NCBI GenBank assembly: GCA_963764165.1
Contig: CAVXRD010000001.1
Span: forward strand, 96,001 to 160,000
Length of the DNA: 64,000 nt
DNA from: an uncultured Verrucomicrobiae bacterium
Lineage (GTDB): Bacteria; Verrucomicrobiota; Verrucomicrobiia; Limisphaerales; Palsa-1400
Direction of reading: 5' to 3'
Shown here: positions 43,925 through 64,000 of the stretch, one piece after another
Numbering within the stretch: position 1 is the stretch's first letter
Layout of the letters: each line of letters begins with the position of its first letter
Notes under the pieces: model-generated
Told to the model about the DNA's origin: nothing
What the model saw: only the letters and a program-made list of their open reading frames with translations
Databases searched by the model: none
Made by a program: the position numbers and the translations under genes

Positions 43925-44099
43925 CACCCTGCTCTCGCGGCCCGGTGTGAGACAGAATTCTTCTTTAAGAATTAGATTGCGTCAGAATGTCCAGGCATTC
44001 AGCAGGCATGCGCGCGCTTCCGTGCGCGAGGGAAAATCTCCGGGCCGCCGAAGCGCCGTAGGCGCGGCACGTTTGTAGAAAACAATCCGAAAACATGCC

Positions 44100-44142
44100 C
44101 AGAGAACATGAGTGCGCAGAGGGATACAAAGGCAAATCCGCA
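44100..44142 (+). repeat. Dispersed 43-bp repeat (other copies at 40594-40635 and 46431-46473)
   Basis: CAGAGAACATGAGTGCGCAGAGGGATACAAAGGCAAATCCGCA; 42/43 identical to 46431-46473. Confidence 0.85.
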
Positions 44143-44275: not shown

Positions 44276-44349
44276 AAAAACGTCGCGGAGAACCGCGCCG
44301 TTGGTGTGCATAGCCACCATATTACCCAGCATAGTGGCTAAGCAGCCCC
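44276..44349 (-). repeat. Diverged duplicate of the ahcY 3'UTR/terminator
   Basis: Aligns without gaps to 46722-46795 at roughly 80-85% identity (by eye). Confidence 0.8.
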
Positions 44350-45581: not shown

Positions 45582-45676
45582 ACGATGCCGAATTGTGATT
45601 ATGCAACTCCAGTCGCAGATGTTGGCACATTATGGAAAACGCTCGATTTCCACCGCAAACCGGCCAGTCTGTCCGC

Positions 45677-46219
45677 ATGGTTGCGAAGCCCAAACTCGTC
45701 CTCTGCCTCGGCCTGGTTTTGAGCGGTGGTTTGCTTGGCTGCTCCACAACAAATCAGCGTGATAACTGGCCCGTGTTCTATGATAGCGAGAAGGGGCCAA
45801 CCCAACTTTCAATTTCGCGCGAGGCACAATCCATCGATTTTTACACAAATGGAATCCCGGCTTGGAATTATGATTTGCCTGTCCCGGCGGCAAAAATCAA
45901 CTCGCCTGTGATGAAGGATTTAGGTGACGTGGGCGGATTGCGGGTCATCGAGGTGCGGCTTGCTTTGACAGACACGTATTATACCGACGCGGTGATGATT
46001 TTGGAGGAAGTCGATTCCGGGCGCTTTTTACCGGTTTATGTTCAGGACTACAACCGTCAAGTCCGCTGGCCAACCGCCAACAGCATTACCAAAGAAAAGA
46101 AGCAACTTACGGTCAATGCAGGCATGGAGTACGCAGGAACCGGCCATTTCCACAATCATTACAAAATTGCCATTATGCCGGACCGTAATCCGGCTGTCGC
46201 AAATGAAAACAGCCGGTAG
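45677..46219 (+). CDS. Hypothetical lipoprotein
   Basis: ATG 45677 gives MVAKPKLVLCLGLVLSGGLLGC (lipobox LLGC). Confidence 0.65.
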   Translation: MVAKPKLVLCLGLVLSGGLLGCSTTNQRDNWPVFYDSEKGPTQLSISREAQSIDFYTNGIPAWNYDLPVPAAKINSPVMKDLGDVGGLRVIEVRLALTDTYYTDAVMILEEVDSGRFLPVYVQDYNRQVRWPTANSITKEKKQLTVNAGMEYAGTGHFHNHYKIAIMPDRNPAVANENSR

Positions 46220-46224
46220 CGGCT

Positions 46225-46319
46225 AATACCACGTAACAGTGTAATTGCAATATTAATTGACATTTCAGCATTGCCGCCCTATTTTTCCCTGTCGCCGTCA
46301 GGCGTGTTCTTTGACATTT
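46225..46319 (+). promoter_or_regulatory. Promoter + boxA-like cassette, copy 1
   Basis: TTGACA(46257-62), 17 bp, TATTTT(46280-85), then TGTTCTTTGACATTT(46305-19); homologous to 57468-57564 on the minus strand. Confidence 0.7.
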
Positions 46320-46521
46320 TGCGTTCGTTTCAAGTGGCGAGGAACCTCTGCTCTGCGTCTCCGCGCGAGATTTCGTTTCATGCCACAATGGAACCAAACC
46401 GCGTTCACAGAGGGAAAGAGATCTCTCGCGCAGAGAAGATGAGTGCGCAGAGGGATACAAAGGCAAATCCGCATCCCACTGAAAATGGGGGGACTATCAA
46501 AACTGGGTGGGATTCCGAGTG

Positions 46522-46594
46522 AATATTTGGGCCGACACGCCGGTCTGCCCTACCAAATTGGGGTAGGGCGGTGCTGCGCCGCCGCCCCAATATT
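46522..46594. repeat. Back-to-back GTAG-family REP-like elements
   Basis: ...GGTCTGCCCTACC aaattgg GGTAGGGCGG..., flanked by AATATT on both sides. Confidence 0.55.
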
Positions 46595-46641
46595 GCTGGA
46601 GCCTCACCCAATTTCAATTGCGCCCCTTAAATCGTGGTCAA

Positions 46642-46706
46642 GGCGTTGCACGCTATTGCACCCTATTGCACCCTTGGCTTTTTCGCGCCAAAAACCTCAT
46701 TGTGCC
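46642..46706 (+). repeat. 10-bp tandem tail (TTGCACCCTA-like x3), copy 1
   Basis: TTGCACGCTATTGCACCCTATTGCACCCTTGG...TTTTCGCG; inverted copy at 57344-57407. Confidence 0.85.
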
Positions 46707-46721
46707 CCCACCAAGTTAAGC

Positions 46722-46748
46722 AAAAACGGCGCGGAAAACCGCGCCGTT
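46722..46748 (-). terminator. Intrinsic terminator of metK-ahcY
   Basis: Minus-strand AACGGCGCGG-TTTT-CCGCGCCGTT hairpin ending in a T run, about 50 nt after the ahcY stop. Confidence 0.75.
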
Positions 46749-46797
46749 GATGTGCATAGTAACTATACTGCCCAGCATCGTGGCTGAGCCGCACCGC

Positions 46798-57343: not shown

Positions 57344-57407
57344 GGCGCAACGAGCTTTTTTTCGCGAAAAACCAAGGGTGCAATAGGGTGCAATAGCATG
57401 CAATGCC
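57344..57407 (-). repeat. 10-bp tandem tail, copy 2
   Basis: The reverse complement TTGCATGCTATTGCACCCTATTGCACCCTTGG matches 46642-46706. Confidence 0.85.
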
Positions 57408-57467
57408 CCGAGCCCTCGCGGAACACATCCAAGGGCGGGTGGCATCTCCTGAAATGCGGGATCGGCC

Positions 57468-57564
57468 AAATGTCAAAGAACATGCCCTGGCGGCAACAGG
57501 GGGAAAATAAGGCCAAAAGTCAGTTTTGTCAATTACTATTGCACTTACACTGTTCCGTGGTATT
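57468..57564 (-). promoter_or_regulatory. Promoter + boxA-like cassette, copy 2
   Basis: TTGACA(57532-27), 17 bp, TATTTT(57509-04), then TGTTCTTTGACATTT(57482-68). Confidence 0.7.
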
Positions 57565-58828
57565 TAGAGAACTGGCGGTTCTCCGCGTCATATTGGTATT
57601 GCGTGACAATCGGCGTATTCGGAACGCCATTGACCGTCGCCAACGTCGTTTCGGAAGTCCGGTTGCCGTTGGCGTCGTAAGTGTAACTCGTGGTTGAGAC
57701 AGGCATCCCGCTGCCGGACGGCCATTGCTGGGTCATGGACGCGACTTCGCCGGAACTGTTCGGCTGCGGCCGGCCGCTGCCGGGATAATAGGTGTAGGAG
57801 GTCGTCACCGGATATGACACGCCTGGCGATTGCTGCGTCGAGCTGGCCACCAAGGCAATGGCGCTCACGATCTTCTGAAGATGGCTGTCCGCCGTCCAGG
57901 TGTAATTCAACGCCCCTTCCGGGCCGATTTTCGACGCCAACCGGTTGAGGCTGTCGTAGGTGTAACTCACCGTCCGCGCCGTCGTGCCGCCCCCCGTCGT
58001 CACAACGCTGCTCCTTTGGCCCCCGGGCTTGTAACTGTAAGTCTCAACCGTGTTGCTCTCTCCCGCGTTGATGGCGGGAAGGAGCCTCGTGGCCATTCTC
58101 CCCATCACGTCCTCCGTCGTGACGATGGTTTTGCCGCGGAAGTCCGTCACTGAGGTTTGCTGGACGTTGATGCTCGAATTGGTGGCCACCGGGACATCGG
58201 CGTAGGCGGTGATTTCAGCGGAGCCATCCGGCAATATGCGCCTGGTGCGGCGGCCCAGGGCGTCGTATTGGTATTGTGTGAGGTTGCCGTTGGCGTCGCT
58301 CTGCGAGAGTTGGTTGCCGCGCTCGTCGTAGGTGTATTCGTAGGTCAAGAGTCCCGAGTCTAAGAGGACGGAGGTCAATAATCCTCGGTAATCGTAGGTG
58401 TAAAACGTGTGAACTCCCGCCTCGTCGGTTGTCTCCACCTTGTTCCCCGATCCGTCGTAGGCAATGGCCGTCTGATGCCGCGTCCCGTCGGCCAGCACCG
58501 GATACGTCGTCAACACCAGCCGGTTAGCCGTGTCATATAAATAATCCGTTTCGTGGCCATTGGCATCGATCATCGAAATCTGGTTGCCGTTGGGGTCGTA
58601 AAAATACTGCGTCGAGTTCGTGCCGCCGGTGGGCGCGATGGTTTGATTGATGCTCGACAAGCTCACCGTGTAATTGGTGTAAACCAGCACGTTGGTGCGG
58701 CGTCCGGCGGCATCATAACTGTATTGCGTGACGTTGCCATTGGCGGCCATGGAATATCGCACACGGCCGGCCAGATCATAGACCGTCCGCGTGAAGGAGA
58801 CAAGCGTTCCCGCGCCCGTGTTGGTCAT
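57545..58828 (-). pseudogene. Orphan Rhs/YD-repeat core fragment with no toxin tip
   Basis: Many YDxxGR repeats but no PxxxxDPxG motif; Rhs-like sequence ends at about 57575, where the cassette begins. Confidence 0.8.
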
Positions 58829-58899
58829 TCCGTAAATGGTGTCTCGATCCTGTCAAAATATGTAAATATGCTGGTCTGACCCCTTTTGTGCGACATATG

Positions 58900-59412
58900 C
58901 TACATATAACTCGTGTAGCCCGTTTGGAACAAATGTCGATTATTCAGGATATAATCCGAAAGGTGCATTGCGATTGTTTTCGGTACCTTGCAAAAGGCCT
59001 CATCCAAGTTAGCCATACGCTTCTCCTTATACGCCTCTGTGAATGCCTCCCATGAATTGCCGGAATCAATCTTCTCCCCACGGTAGTCGTGGCGCAGATA
59101 TTGGTCAAATGCTTCCTCAAAAAGCAGGACAAATGGCTGAGCCGCAATTAAGCGAAGATCCTCAAGGGTCTCCTTACTAAGCGTTTCGCCGCTATTCCAG
59201 AAAAACTGATGGTATCCGCCGTTGTTAACCTCGTTTTGTAATCGAAAGCCTGTATAAACGGCCCGCCAGTGCTGGGGAAGACGCAGAATATACTCGGTAC
59301 GCCCATCCCCTTTGAGATCCTCGATATGCGCTAGCACTGCTTGCCACGCCGTATACGCAGGATTCTCTCCATTGATTTGCTGCTCGGTTAAAATTAACGG
59401 TTTTCGTTTCAA
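58900..59412 (-). CDS. DUF4375/DMP19-like protein, putative immunity protein for the AHH toxin
   Basis: EVNNGGYHQFFWNSG signature; TTG start 5 nt after the toxin stop; low GC. Confidence 0.75.
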   Translation of the reverse strand: MKRKPLILTEQQINGENPAYTAWQAVLAHIEDLKGDGRTEYILRLPQHWRAVYTGFRLQNEVNNGGYHQFFWNSGETLSKETLEDLRLIAAQPFVLLFEEAFDQYLRHDYRGEKIDSGNSWEAFTEAYKEKRMANLDEAFCKVPKTIAMHLSDYILNNRHLFQTGYTSYM

Positions 59413-59417
59413 TTTGA

Positions 59418-61646
59418 TTAATGCGGGTACGCTCCAGCCTTGAGCTCTTGTCCAATCACAAGAAGCCTGGCCCGGACGGTGCCTGGCAAAGCTCCCTCCA
59501 ACTCGTGGCATAGAGTTTCGTAATAGAGATCTGTATGCAAGCCGTCGTGTGCCGATGAATCCAGAAAAGCCCCATTAGCAGCATCGTCGAGGTCAATTTG
59601 CTCCCTCAGCAAAATCGCCCGAGCCCTGGTGGCGCGCACATCATTACGCGCAACAATATGATGGGCGTCAGTGCCTGGCGGCCTGGGTTCACCCACGGCT
59701 TCGAGGTTACCGGCGAGATCCCTGGCACAAGCGTTATGCGTAAGAATATTATCATCACCGACAAAGTAAGTATGTGTGTCCTTAACCTCAAAGTTAAATA
59801 CGACATTTGATGACAATTCGATCGTCATCGACGATAGCTCTAAATTGTTACCATCCAATGTCTTTAAGACGTCTCCAGAACACAGATTGGCTGCCTCTCG
59901 CCATCCCGACCCATTTACCCAAAATCGGTGTTGCGGCGTTGTTTCCAAGAGGTTTGTGCCGAAACGAAGGATGGCAAGCTCACCTACAGAACGACGGAAT
60001 AATCTCCGCACTGGCTCCACAATAATTTCACCCTTTTCTACGTCCCATGACCATACACTGTCCCCAATTCTTACATCTTCTATCTTTTTGTAGCCGTCCA
60101 CTTCCATAATTAATGTTCCGGAGACAAAACAGTTATTCGCAGTTCCGTTTTCCGATATCTCACCATATTTCATTCCAGCAGTGGCCCCGTAAATGCTCGC
60201 AAAAATCAAGACGGCACTCGCTTCCCTTTGCTCAAGTGTTGCATTTGGATCCAAGAGAGTCGGTCCGTAACTCAATCCGCTGTATACCGCTCCCCCGACT
60301 CCCAAGCCTACGCCAACGGCCGGAATGTAGCCGGCAAGCGGACCTAAAACCGCTCCGAGAGCCGCCCCCTCAAAGACCGACCTTGCAGTTATCGCTCTTC
60401 CCTCTGCCACATTGGCAACAGCGCTGCTAAGTCCTCCAATCGTGGCTCCAATTCCCATGGAGATCATCAAGTCTCCCATATCGTGCCCGCTCGGGTCGAT
60501 GTGATTGGCCGGATTTGCTTCGCAATATAGATATTTATGAAGGGACAGAGGATCGGTTTGGTCGCCATCATAAGTATCTATTGTCCAAAACCGCCCCAAT
60601 TTTGGGTCATAATAGCGGGCGCGGAGGTAGTATTGCTGCAAGTCCGGGTCCCATTGCTGACCGGTGTAGCGGTAGTTGCTTGTCGTGCTGTTGGTGCTGT
60701 TGAGCAGGTTGCCGTAGCCGTCGTAGTCGAAGCTGGCTGCGACGGTGTTGCCGTCCAGCAGCATGCGCGTGCTGCCTTGGCCATCGGAGGCGAAATACAG
60801 GATGTCGTCGCCGTCGGTGCATTGGCTGATGAGCGACAGGCCGTAGGCGTAGGATATGGATGTCCCGTTGTACGGCGAGAGGGATGTCCATTCCACCAGC
60901 ACTTGCGGGTAGCCGGTTGGGTTTTGATCATCCACCAAATATGTGGTCGTGATGCCGCCCACGGTCTTGCTGATGCGGTTGCCGTCGGTGTCATAGGTAA
61001 TCTGGATGTTGGTTCCGCGGGAGATCAGGCGGTTCTCGGCGTCGTACTTGGCGCCGTCGGGCACGCCATTGGTTGTCACCGAGTTGCCGTTGAGGTCGTA
61101 ATTGGGGTTCGCATTGTTCGCCCAGCCGTCTGAGTCAATCTGGTCTCGGTGGTCGAAGACGAATGCCTGATTGGTCAGGTTGTCGTACGGCGTGAAACCA
61201 AAACTGACGGTTCGGTTTGTCCGGTTGCCCACCGGGTCGTAAGCGTAGGTCTGGCTGCCGTCGTTGGTGCCAGTATTGCTGTAGTACGTCTCCGAGGTCA
61301 GGCGGCTGACGCGCGGAAGGTTTCCGCCGTCGTAGCCGTATATGATCTGGCGAACGACACTGGTGCCCAATGATTCGGTCACATTTGTCCGCGCGCCGGT
61401 GGCGTTGAGGCCGTAGGCGTAGGTTTGCAGTTGCGTTCCGGCGTTGTTGGTCAGGGCCACCTGCAACAAACGATTCTGCGGGTTGTAGCTGTAGGTGTGC
61501 GACATACCGCCGGGATAAACGCACTTGGCCTCGTTCCCCACCGCGTCATACGTGTAACTGGTCACGTTCGGCGAAGAAATCGTGCTGTTGGTCACGAACG
61601 CCAAGCGGCCAAAATTATTGTAGCCGTATATATTTCTCAAGGCCAA
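59418..61646 (-). CDS. Orphan Rhs module: core tip, HINT domain and AHH (HNH-fold) nuclease
   Basis: YRYTGQQWD...YYLRARYYDPKLGRFW, PANHIDPSG, HINT from CFVSGT to LTHN (60131-59733), DAHHIV...NG...H. Only a TTG start inside the upstream gene. Confidence 0.88.
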   Translation of the reverse strand: MALRNIYGYNNFGRLAFVTNSTISSPNVTSYTYDAVGNEAKCVYPGGMSHTYSYNPQNRLLQVALTNNAGTQLQTYAYGLNATGARTNVTESLGTSVVRQIIYGYDGGNLPRVSRLTSETYYSNTGTNDGSQTYAYDPVGNRTNRTVSFGFTPYDNLTNQAFVFDHRDQIDSDGWANNANPNYDLNGNSVTTNGVPDGAKYDAENRLISRGTNIQITYDTDGNRISKTVGGITTTYLVDDQNPTGYPQVLVEWTSLSPYNGTSISYAYGLSLISQCTDGDDILYFASDGQGSTRMLLDGNTVAASFDYDGYGNLLNSTNSTTSNYRYTGQQWDPDLQQYYLRARYYDPKLGRFWTIDTYDGDQTDPLSLHKYLYCEANPANHIDPSGHDMGDLMISMGIGATIGGLSSAVANVAEGRAITARSVFEGAALGAVLGPLAGYIPAVGVGLGVGGAVYSGLSYGPTLLDPNATLEQREASAVLIFASIYGATAGMKYGEISENGTANNCFVSGTLIMEVDGYKKIEDVRIGDSVWSWDVEKGEIIVEPVRRLFRRSVGELAILRFGTNLLETTPQHRFWVNGSGWREAANLCSGDVLKTLDGNNLELSSMTIELSSNVVFNFEVKDTHTYFVGDDNILTHNACARDLAGNLEAVGEPRPPGTDAHHIVARNDVRATRARAILLREQIDLDDAANGAFLDSSAHDGLHTDLYYETLCHELEGALPGTVRARLLVIGQELKAGAYPH

Positions 61647-62253
61647 GCTTATTCACGGTTTCGGCCTTCCACGCTTCTAGTTGAGCCAGTGCCGTTTCTG
61701 GATTTTGCAAAAGCTTGCCTTCGATCAATTGCGTTCTTTGTAGCAACTCGGCAATCCACGGAGTGTCTGATTGTTCAAATCTTTGCTTAAATTCAGCCAA
61801 TACTTCCAGACCAGCGGCATAATCACCGTTTCTAACCAACGTATAGGCGAAGGCCTCCAGAGTGTGTGGATTTACGCGCTGTCTGTCAAACTCGACAGAC
61901 GCCTTCAGATACCTTAGAACTCCTTCCCGTGTGAGAACATTATTGAGAAACGGGATTGCCTCACTACGAATGACCGCGTTTAAGTCTGCTAGTAAATTCG
62001 GATTATCCAGACGCCAATTCAGAGCGTTCCCAATGCGATTCCCGTAATTGAAGTAAATATAATCTGTTGGAACATAGAGGGGAAGGAAAAAAACATGCAA
62101 ATGAAAGTAATTGGCGTCGGAGGTGTTTTCAAAATATAATGTGCGCAGAAAATCGTCCGCAGGCGACATAAGGATCATTTTTTTCTCCGATATGAAGCCG
62201 GGTAAATCAGGCAACAGCGCTTTTGCAATTTTTTGAGCTTGTTTCGTTGTCAT
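61615..62253 (-). CDS. Putative immunity protein
   Basis: ATGA overlap with the toxin stop; 212 aa; low GC. Confidence 0.7.
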   Translation of the reverse strand: MTTKQAQKIAKALLPDLPGFISEKKMILMSPADDFLRTLYFENTSDANYFHLHVFFLPLYVPTDYIYFNYGNRIGNALNWRLDNPNLLADLNAVIRSEAIPFLNNVLTREGVLRYLKASVEFDRQRVNPHTLEAFAYTLVRNGDYAAGLEVLAEFKQRFEQSDTPWIAELLQRTQLIEGKLLQNPETALAQLEAWKAETVNKLGLEKYIRLQ

Positions 62254-64000
62254 GGTCTAATTTCTTCAATCGGTATGTTTTGATAACCTTCCGGTAAATG
62301 CTTTCGGATTTGTTGGATTCGAGCGGCTTTAAGTTTAGCACTTCCTGTTTTCAAATCCCACACTGCTTGAGGTTGCAATTTGTCGCCCTTAACCACATCC
62401 AAGCGTACGGAACCGGGTGTGCCATAAGGGACTTCTTTTCCGTTAAGATATGACACCTCCGAATTCAGTCCCATCGCTTTTACTTCTTTTGCAAATGCCG
62501 TATGTGCCTTTGTGCCAAAACCCGGCATGCCCTCCGTTAGTCCAAACTCCTCTTCAACAGTTTTCGCCGCACGCCCAGCGGCTCCCATTAAATTTGCGGC
62601 AGTTGATTCCGTCAAGGCGAATTCCTGCGCACCTTGAACCGTATTCGCGCCATTTACTTCCAGACTCACGGCCTCCCCGCTGACATTAGCCCCAAACAAC
62701 AGGTCACCAGCCACGTCGACTGTCGCGCCAATCCCGTAACCCAATGCGAGTCCATTGGCAACGTCCAGAAGATAGCCGCCCAGTATCGCGTTTTCAGTCA
62801 GCCTGTTTTGAACGCCGATAAGCGTTGCCTGAAGCGCATTTCCGGCAGCTAATACTGCTCCATTGTACATTCCATCCAGGCCCGCAGCGATAGTGGTGCT
62901 CATCATCAAGCCACCAAGATCGCCATCATGCCCTGATGGGTCCCTCATGTTCACCGGATCCGCTTCGCAGTACAAGTATTTATGAAGCGACAACGGGTCT
63001 TCCTGATTCCCGTCATAACTATCGCTCGTAATGAAGCGGCCAAGGTTGGGCGCGTAATATCGCGGCCCAAGACTGTACATTTCAAGATATGGATCATAGA
63101 ACTCGCAGTCATACAGGTAGAAGTTTTGATCCGACCCTGTTTGATACAGCAGGTTTCCATAACCATCATAGTCATAGGTGTCCTGTACGCTTCCCGAGCC
63201 ATCTAAAAGCAGCCGCACGCTCCCTTGCCCGTCAAATCCCGTGTAACGAACGGGCGAATTGCTCCAGTTTTGGCTAATCAAGCTCAAGCCCCACACGTAA
63301 CTAACGGTGGCCGACATGGCTTCGGGCCAGTACTGCGCCACCACCTGCGGATACCCGCTCGGACTCATTTCATCCACAAGGTAAAGATTGATGCCGTAGG
63401 ATTCATTGACCCGGTTGCCAGAGTGATCATACTCCAACACATCGTCCCCTTGGTCGGTGATCAGCCGGTTCTGCGCGTCGTAATAATTTCCCGAAGCCGA
63501 GCTGGGCAGGGCCAGCGTGTTGCCGTTGGCGTCGTAGTTTGTGTTCGCATTGTTCGGAATATTATCGCTGTCAATCAAATCACGATGGTCGTAAGCATTC
63601 GTTTGCCCGGCCACCGGGGAACCGGCCCAAGTCCGGCGCGTCAAGCGGTTTCCCGCTGGGTCGTACGTATTTGTCACCGCCCCGATGAAACTTCCTGACG
63701 TCCCGTAAAACGCCTCGGACGTCAACCGGCTCACGCGGGCTAGGCCGGAGCCGTCATAACCCCACGCCACCTGGCCCAATGAGCCGTGGCCGCCGGATTC
63801 GACCACATTGGTCCGGCTCCCCACCATGCTCAACCCGTAAGCAAAGCTCTGCACCAGCACCCCACTACCATTGGTCAAGGCCAGCCACGTCAGACGGTTT
63901 TGCGCGTTGTAACTACAGCTATGCTGCACGCCGTTGGGATACGCGAATCCCGCGAGATTTCCGACATTATCGTAACGATATGTGGCAGCATTGGTGGCCA
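62250..64000 (-). CDS. Rhs protein C-terminal part with a restriction-endonuclease-fold (PD-(D/E)xK-like) toxin tip (partial; 5' end beyond the window)
   Basis: The frame stays open to the window edge. YD repeats, PVNMRDPSG, and tip motifs EVSY...VRLDVV...WDLKTG. Confidence 0.85.
   Translation of the reverse strand, partial: ATNAATYRYDNVGNLAGFAYPNGVQHSCSYNAQNRLTWLALTNGSGVLVQSFAYGLSMVGSRTNVVESGGHGSLGQVAWGYDGSGLARVSRLTSEAFYGTSGSFIGAVTNTYDPAGNRLTRRTWAGSPVAGQTNAYDHRDLIDSDNIPNNANTNYDANGNTLALPSSASGNYYDAQNRLITDQGDDVLEYDHSGNRVNESYGINLYLVDEMSPSGYPQVVAQYWPEAMSATVSYVWGLSLISQNWSNSPVRYTGFDGQGSVRLLLDGSGSVQDTYDYDGYGNLLYQTGSDQNFYLYDCEFYDPYLEMYSLGPRYYAPNLGRFITSDSYDGNQEDPLSLHKYLYCEADPVNMRDPSGHDGDLGGLMMSTTIAAGLDGMYNGAVLAAGNALQATLIGVQNRLTENAILGGYLLDVANGLALGYGIGATVDVAGDLLFGANVSGEAVSLEVNGANTVQGAQEFALTESTAANLMGAAGRAAKTVEEEFGLTEGMPGFGTKAHTAFAKEVKAMGLNSEVSYLNGKEVPYGTPGSVRLDVVKGDKLQPQAVWDLKTGSAKLKAARIQQIRKHLPEGYQNIPIEEIRP

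Follow-up and report, generated by a model that had tools for sequence, protein, structure and literature searches.

A dispersed boxA-bearing unit with a putative Mu gp27-like small-terminase gene in an uncultured member of the Verrucomicrobiota: a possible integrase-less, satellite-like element

Introduction

Known phage satellites bear an integrase and occupy one or a few sites, and the MITEs and the Correia elements of Neisseria are short, dispersed, non-autonomous and promoter-bearing sequences with internal-deletion derivatives. The unit that we describe here, from the genome of an uncultured bacterium of the Verrucomicrobiota, is like the MITEs and Correia elements in being short, dispersed and promoter-bearing and in having internally deleted forms, but differs from them in its strong polarity, in its phage-type parts, and in that neither terminal inverted repeats nor a target duplication were found at the copies inspected.

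The unit is also comparable to the PICIs and the PICI-like tycheposons, which combine a small terminase, a replication protein with an origin-like array, divergent promoters and dependence on the virion genes of a helper, much as the unit would (bioRxiv 10.1101/2020.12.28.424599). As those elements are portrayed in the accessible part of that source, the unit departs from them in lacking an integrase, in its size of about 2 kb, in its occurrence as 50 dispersed copies—most of them gene-less—in the location of the terminase and replication genes in separate modules, and in the possession of an rRNA-type boxA. The BaGTA of Bartonella offers a further parallel, since there a replication module of phage origin works together with packaging and capsid genes resident in the genome, and antitermination is involved; according to the available text of the sources, one region is amplified by run-off replication and the processive antiterminator, BrrG, is itself phage-derived (PMC2697382; bioRxiv 10.1101/2024.11.20.624540). 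In contrast, the origin-like and array sites of the genome studied here run to dozens, the boxA is that of the host Nus system, the genes are of Mu type and the host is from the Verrucomicrobiota.

Individual parts of the unit have their own counterparts. The orphan gene of the unit is similar, over residues 31-215, to gp27 of phage Mu, a presumed small terminase (PF11985, PHROG 426), and relatives of the orphan gene precede TerL and a Mu portal in viral contigs; the gene differs from that of Mu in standing alone in several copies, with its own promoter-like site and outside any prophage, and in having a Pfam score under the cut-off. Among the boxA and Nus-factor sites of rRNA operons (PMC5725501), the boxA of the host's 16S-23S spacer has the same sequence as that of the unit, which is located shortly after a promoter-like site and a hairpin, but in the unit no rRNA, tRNA or gene lies behind. 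DUF3631, for its part, is listed as RepAM, the replication initiator of pMEA300, and the genes found here resemble the RepAM replicons of actinomycete integrative elements in exceeding the Pfam cut-off and in having a repeat array at the 3' end; in comparison with those replicons, as far as they are covered by the text available in PMC3218068, the present genes have no integrase, FtsK/SpoIIIE or Prim-Pol beside them, and there are 67-88 occurrences of the array that lack the gene.

We found no description of the element in a literature search whose coverage was thin for subscription papers and supplements. The initial annotation of this DNA had likewise taken the unit to be undescribed; we regard it, within the literature searched, as an undescribed and strongly deviant variant of the phage satellites, dispersed in 50 copies.

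Results

Two copies in the window

The window—by which we mean the whole 64-kb stretch of DNA analysed—corresponds to C1:96001-160000 in a genome of 7.0 Mb and five contigs. Two copies of the unit, designated A and B, are present in opposite orientations, with the following features.

46225..46319, plus strand: head A, a member of the 50-copy family, comprising two promoter-like sites set back to back, then a hairpin and boxA
46223..46250, minus strand: outward promoter-like site of copy A (TTGCAA, 16 bp with a TGTGG-type extension, -10), a putative function
46257..46285, plus strand: inward sigma70-type promoter-like site of copy A (TTGACA at 46257-46262, a 17-bp spacer, TATTTT at 46280-46285)
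46293..46316, plus strand: 4-bp hairpin followed by boxA TGTTCTTTGACA (46305-46316), the same as the boxA of the host 16S-23S spacer
46320..46641, plus strand: interior A, a patchwork of other dispersed repeats, with no gene
46642..46706, plus strand: tail A, with three phased 10-bp units (46645-46674), a T-tract and a short conserved run-out
57468..57564, minus strand: head B (TTGACA at 57532-57527; end of boxA at 57471)
57408..57467, minus strand: interior B, about 60 bp, with no gene
57344..57407, minus strand: tail B, a run-out after three phased 10-bp units
45632..46219, plus strand: orphan lipoprotein ORF, a neighbour outside the unit that occupies the place of the gp27-like gene and stops 5 bp before head A
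57545..58828, minus strand: truncated Rhs-repeat ORF, a neighbour outside the unit, cut after an RHS repeat and with its stop codon within head B
46722..46795, no strand assigned: 74-bp region after the ahcY stop, with a second copy in direct repeat at 44276-44349 (84%)

No inverted-repeat pairs in the window are longer than those formed by the heads (46225-46289 / 57500-57564, at 78% identity) and by the tails (46642-46682 / 57367-57407, at 93%), and both the sequence and the inverted-pair search place the two heads and two tails where the initial annotation had located them. Counted by eye, the promoter spacers of the two copies have 7 of 17 letters in common, and pieces of interior A match 16, 69 and 43 genomic places. 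The ORF coordinates likewise agree with the lipoprotein end at 5 bp from head A and with the Rhs fragment broken at head B; the attendant view that the copies abut foreign DNA holds for these two, but not for the family, where in 28 of 50 copies that position holds the beginning of a common gene. That gene start is missing from both window copies: the outward site of copy A, which in complete copies faces the gp27-like gene, has lost it. Neither tail A nor tail B is followed by the origin-like array considered below.

The 74-bp repeat, together with a 46-bp direct repeat (44097-44142 / 46428-46473, 96% identity), brackets an ankyrin gene, a membrane protein, the lipoprotein and copy A. The Rhs locus (window 57545-63929, minus strand) comprises orphan fragments, a HINT-AHH nuclease tip and a DMP19-like neighbour, and its G+C content is lower (53%).

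A dispersed family of heads and tails

Searching the genome with nhmmer gave 50 heads—48 at E<1e-22 and two split by an insertion—the next match having an E of only 1e-3, which gap indicates that the recurrence of the head is not due to chance; the two copies first counted are thus a small part of the family. Every head is followed by a tail (50/50), at a distance of 46-2005 bp (median 159), and the tails contain from two to six ten-base units, three in 40 of the copies. Although the mean pairwise identity of the whole heads is 77%, TTGAC is retained in 47/48 and TGTTCTTTGA in 41/48, in keeping with the earlier suggestion that the promoter elements and the boxA are under conservation. A TAnnnT hexamer lies 16-18 bp after the -35, and a 4-bp hairpin precedes the boxA in a profile that includes 13 metagenome copies; these, having been chosen by pattern, inflate the conservation of the profile, and the conservation counts given here refer to this genome only.

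Exact boxA-type sites number 49 in the genome, 43 of them in heads and one between the 16S and 23S genes of the single rRNA operon that was located, whose boxA has the same sequence as that of the heads. By count of exact sites the unit family would be the cell's main boxA target, where few Nus targets are expected per species in the available text of PMC5725501. In the heads the boxA sits on the transcribed strand, after the promoter-like site, and by its sequence would be an antitermination site of the Nus type; the resemblance to Nus boxA that was pointed out at first sight has proved to be identity with the boxA of the host rRNA. Antitermination is nonetheless not assured, because the effect of a boxA depends on context and can be to promote termination, as stated in the text available from Baniulyte et al. 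(PMC5725501). An antiterminated RNA unit, one of the possibilities raised initially, is plausible from these sequence features.

No protein family is shared between interiors other than an IS-like transposase, in one copy, and no host-type gene is present in the interiors of the 50 copies. The interiors were rightly described as gene-less, but are made up of other dispersed repeats in a patchwork, and tolerate insertions of up to 2 kb. The proposal that head and tail are the two ends of a unit whose cargo was deleted does not hold, since the interiors share nothing beyond that transposase and the corresponding layout at a locus of another genus (L011, below) is equally gene-less. The gene that was lost lay outside the cassette, on the AATACCAC side, and the head is not an end but the middle of the unit, with the origin-like array beyond the tail and a further module, Z, beyond the gene.

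Several other identities for the head and its transcript were tried and rejected. The 16S leader is unlike the head, only the spacer boxA matching, and the head is thus not an rRNA leader; with a copy number above two and a tail behind every head as well, none of the refutations foreseen in the initial annotation applies. A known RNA family was discarded upon finding no match in the window with Rfam 15 at gathering score, and a conserved fold of the boxA transcript upon folding six copies, which had only a short hairpin in common. One RNA data set, which contained 0.05 of the sequence words and gave no contig at 99% identity, had negligible coverage over the element and carries no weight as to its transcription. 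Nor does the unit conform to a CRISPR array with a boxA leader, the interiors being patchworks of 46-2005 bp and the 10-mers of the tail contiguous, with no spacers. With regard to the replichores, heads agree with the local GC skew in 26/50 cases and the M2 boxes described below in 29/55, with no bias in either, and the origin-like arrays in 57/88 (p 0.007), the skew being weak in this assembly.

The gene on the outward side

In the outward direction the head presents TTGCAA and, after a 16-bp spacer that bears a TGTGG extension, a -10, with the gene start no more than about 12 bases further on. In 28/50 copies—those in which a gene start scores above threshold, set against a random-window null—the start of one gene family is present on this side, and between two and four further copies, below the threshold, look by eye like short remnants of the gene. 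The reading of this block as an outward promoter, offered tentatively at first, gains from the site's facing the gp27-like gene in those 28 copies. Three copies hold the complete gene of 369 aa, one of them at C4:77602-78711; in others it is broken or internally deleted.

The 369-aa protein matches PHROG 426 'terminase small subunit' with an E of 4.5e-8, and Pfam Phage_Mu_Gp27 (PF11985) with 25.4 bits (E 2.1e-5), without reaching the cut-off of 28 bits; phage-borne relatives likewise score under that cut-off, and in a viral contig (L041) one such relative precedes TerL and the Mu portal. The orphan gene is accordingly designated a putative Mu gp27-like small terminase. The predicted structure is helical with a confident core (pLDDT 73.6), a fold search with that model returning generic helical hairpins only (best Z 9.1). 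Over the core, the three whole copies differ with dN of 0.011-0.021 versus dS of 0.09-0.115: the intact gp27-like genes are under purifying selection.

The Z module, of about 100 bp, has 13 genomic copies; in every case (13/13) it is located 0.18-3.4 kb from a head, on the side of the gene, and it is retained also in copies whose gene is deleted. Repeated Z modules enclose short genes in the manner of a cassette array, among them toxin-antitoxin-like pairs and a Y1 transposase or remnant (C5:51760-53227; C2:2344274-2345459; C2:2570606-2571207).

The array beyond the tail

A second array, consisting of four to five direct repeats of 10-11 bp, a short inverted repeat and an AT-rich run, occurs in the genome 67 times by a strict pattern and 88 times by a loose one. 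It lies within 1.5 kb downstream and on the same strand in 26/50 heads, where 1000 random intergenic draws gave a mean of 1.6 and a maximum of 7; as to orientation, 30 arrays are downstream in the same sense as the head, one upstream in the same sense and one downstream in the opposite sense. The other 24 heads, both window copies among them, are without the array, and most such arrays are not behind a head. We presume that its form is akin to that of P4-type iterons, and from its position and form the second array is likely a replication origin. The full unit would then have the order Z, gp27-like gene, head, tail and origin-like array, in about 2 kb.

Two orphan DUF3631 genes have the same array immediately behind their stop codon, and it is found at the 3' end of DUF3631 homologues in relatives (e.g., L209, L212, L224 and L226), while several other homologues in relatives have the array upstream or not at all. 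The gene at C4:314824 scores 79.9 bits against RepAM (PF12307), above the cut-off of 24 bits. No DUF3631 gene adjoins any of the 50 heads, and no DUF3631 relative was confirmed in viral contigs. Three orphan DUF3631/RepAM genes (C4:314824-316167, C2:1440672-1442015 and C2:2985925-2987430) have an upstream palindrome of their own in addition to the origin-like array.

The M2 box and the resident Mu-like virion genes

Strict tail matches without a head amount to 17/64, and most of these are behind a second promoter-like box, M2, which by its position may be a late promoter. This box has 55 genomic copies, in 53 of which the next gene is on the same strand; 28 copies carry the same tail and many others carry related 10-bp arrays. 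M2 is composed of a dyad box, an extended -10-like motif and an ATG (e.g., C1:1272000, minus strand; C2:560074, plus strand; C2:1192737, minus strand). The box lies upstream of two further gp27-like genes and heads two virion operons, neither of which has a transposase: one at C1:1257311-1271835, with a Mu portal, a Mu-like protease, a capsid candidate, a gp36 adaptor and tail genes; the other at C2:560197-564279, with lysis-like genes and ending in TerL (C2:562768). Viral TerL and portal queries gave no tblastn match in the genome, and profile searches found both. The capsid position is held by a 352-aa gene that we consider a candidate major capsid protein on the basis of a language-model feature score of 0.98 to capsid-named clusters; it has no Pfam or PHROG match, and PF10124 is absent.

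Among 30 relatives the portal is present in 13, of which 11, belonging to four genera, have one copy of it at 65-76% identity; in three congeners the gene upstream of it is also the same; TerL is present in 25/30, at 62-77% identity in 15/30. By its sequence, this split Mu-like virion gene set is a candidate gene transfer agent. The corresponding TerL of L251 has a gp27-type gene immediately before it. The small gene before the TerL of this genome, 28% alike between congeners, shows no similarity to the orphan gp27-like family (hhalign probability 0.6%), and the resident terminase may therefore use another small subunit. The genome also contains a whole Mu-like prophage (C4, ~317000-352000) with transposition genes, a TerL of its own (C4:330535) and an HK97-type head; it has several tail genes in common with the resident operon, at 61-86% identity. 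In one relative (G006, C70:13374-15315 and C22:40630-42768) there are several TerL copies, two of which adjoin gp27-like genes, so that terminase pairs are multiplied in that genome.

Relatives

A BLAST of the head against relatives, as had been recommended at the outset, gave only weak matches of boxA size, in 2/40. The exact tail pattern was found in none of 300 genomes of the order (0/300), while the layout recurs, which combination indicates that the letters are lineage-specific and the layout shared. A pattern scan of metagenomes gave 31 matches, of which 13, in one assembly, were taken as true copies and 18 treated as chance.

Matches to the promoter-boxA pattern number 52 in the relative G004, 19 each in G002 and G014, 12 in G008 and 9 in G003, against 0-2 for a reversed-pattern control, and 14/30 relatives have none. 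Forty-six relative loci were examined and six dropped for short flanks; in the remaining 40, likely chance matches included, a 10-bp array is downstream in 15/40 and upstream in 2/40, versus 11/500 random windows, 25/40 having no array by the strict test. No gp27-like gene is near the boxA cassettes of the relatives, with the exception of L011, the only relative locus with the back-to-back layout plus a gp27-like gene; the interior between its head and tail is gene-less. The gp27-like genes themselves are dispersed, mostly in multiple copies, in 18/24 genomes of the family, often with a 10-bp array near their 3' end. Cassettes and portal do not coincide throughout: G002, G007 and G020 (89, 89 and 67% complete) have boxA cassettes but no portal match with this query, and G006 and G019 have the portal and no promoter-boxA pattern match. 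In G004, promoter-boxA cassettes form tandem runs (C2:114844-115220 and 153113-154709).

Discussion

The anatomy of the unit, its fixed order and polarity, the purifying selection on its gene and the presence of Mu-like virion genes in the genome are firm as read from the sequence. As to what the unit does, the copies would likely act as start points from which phage-derived machinery copies and packs chromosomal DNA. Our leading reading, to which we attach slightly less than an even chance, is that the unit is a non-autonomous, satellite-like element without an integrase, replicated and packaged in trans. Of the 22 matches to the tyrosine-recombinase family PF00589 in the genome, the nearest is about 10 kb from any head, and the proteins shared by the flanks of the heads include no integrase.

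According to this model, the products needed in trans would come from those few small-terminase-like and RepAM-like genes that are intact. The outward and inward promoters would both fire; the boxA would recruit Nus factors, and an untranslated RNA would run through the 10-bp array to the origin-like array, most likely opening the latter, in a transcription towards the array that we assume to be of the kind of the transcriptional activation of the lambda origin. The terminase-like protein would bind the phased array along with the related TGCAAT boxes of the head, the origin-like array would be where replication begins, and at the 10-bp array the DNA would pass to the Mu-like packaging machinery of the same cell. 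In the last and weakest step, the packaged DNA might carry the unit with its flanks to other cells and land there by recombination among the palindromic repeats of which these intergenic patches are full. A broader formulation, which we think rather improbable, would see in these parts a distributed gene-transfer system, made up of the split domesticated Mu-like virion set and some 100 chromosomal stations, where Nus-protected transcription opens a RepAM-type origin to amplify DNA locally and the phased array recruits the small terminase, with packaging from defined sites around the whole chromosome and not from random ones or from a single run-off origin.

Among the competing explanations, the one that survives best, though still rather unlikely, is domestication by the host: the units would be kept by selection, and not be selfish, as the many starts for a GTA-like particle formed from the split Mu-like operons. 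The splitting of the virion genes into operons without transposase, each behind M2, fits well with this notion, as do the conserved single-copy portal with its constant upstream neighbour and the near invariance of boxA and -35 in gene-less copies; the positions of the units, however, are not conserved. For the two metagenome copies with mappable flanks, from a close relative, both corresponding sites are headless in this genome and show no clean junction, and the ahcY site is without the unit in 4/4 congeners, each having different DNA there. Furthermore, the whole Mu-like prophage, with its transposition genes, could serve as a helper, and the available text of PMC6854486 gives no discrete packaging sites as known in the Rhodobacter GTA.

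The unit could alternatively be a plain selfish repeat whose movement depends on a transposase of the host, such as a REP-associated Y1 acting on the flanking palindromes, in which case the terminase-like gene and the arrays would be passengers or regulators and no packaging would occur. We hold this to be quite unlikely. The copies do sit in patches of palindromic repeats; of the ten matches to the Y1 transposase in this genome, two are no more than about 2.3 kb away from a head and one has a Z module on either side; and internally deleted copies retain both ends, as in MITEs. Terminal inverted repeats and target duplications, however, were not seen by inspection of related copies and of two relative-versus-host sites, without a clean empty site, and the selfish-repeat explanation would leave unaccounted for the purifying selection on a dispersed terminase-like gene, the constant orientation towards the origin-like array and the fact that the head has its tail in common with M2, the box of the virion operons.

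That the product is an antiterminated RNA, or that the DNA array is a decoy that titrates the small terminase of incoming Mu-like phages and thus acts in defence, is an explanation of low probability. In this genome as in the relatives, the arrays always follow the promoter in one sense; the boxA is exact, and cassettes without a gene predominate; moreover, by rough gene calls in the 50 copies the gene after the tail is on the same strand in 29 and facing in 21, so that the promoter does not serve the downstream host genes. An RNA or decoy would, on the other hand, sit poorly with the folding and Rfam results given above and with interiors that tolerate 2-kb insertions, and leaves the origin-like array without a role. 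Finally, the head as a portable promoter co-opted for neighbouring host genes is very improbable: strong consensus promoter-like sites do point both ways, and in 32/50 copies the gene called upstream is directed away from the head—a count that includes the gp27-like genes—but the downstream orientation is near random (29/50), the neighbours are unrelated and the positions differ between close relatives.

If the preferred reading of a satellite-like element packaged in trans is true, integrase-less units in tens of copies, which unite terminase, origin-like and rRNA-type antitermination signals, would represent a new way of choosing DNA for transfer, in an abundant and mostly uncultured group. 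The unit offers a candidate binding site for the Mu gp27 family, and the model would explain the orphan gp27-like and DUF3631 genes along with the scattered 10-bp arrays.

The 10-bp arrays of the relatives, for their part, are often translated within the C-terminus of the gp27-like protein, where they yield a recurring peptide repeat of 10 residues (L098, L110, L118 and others).
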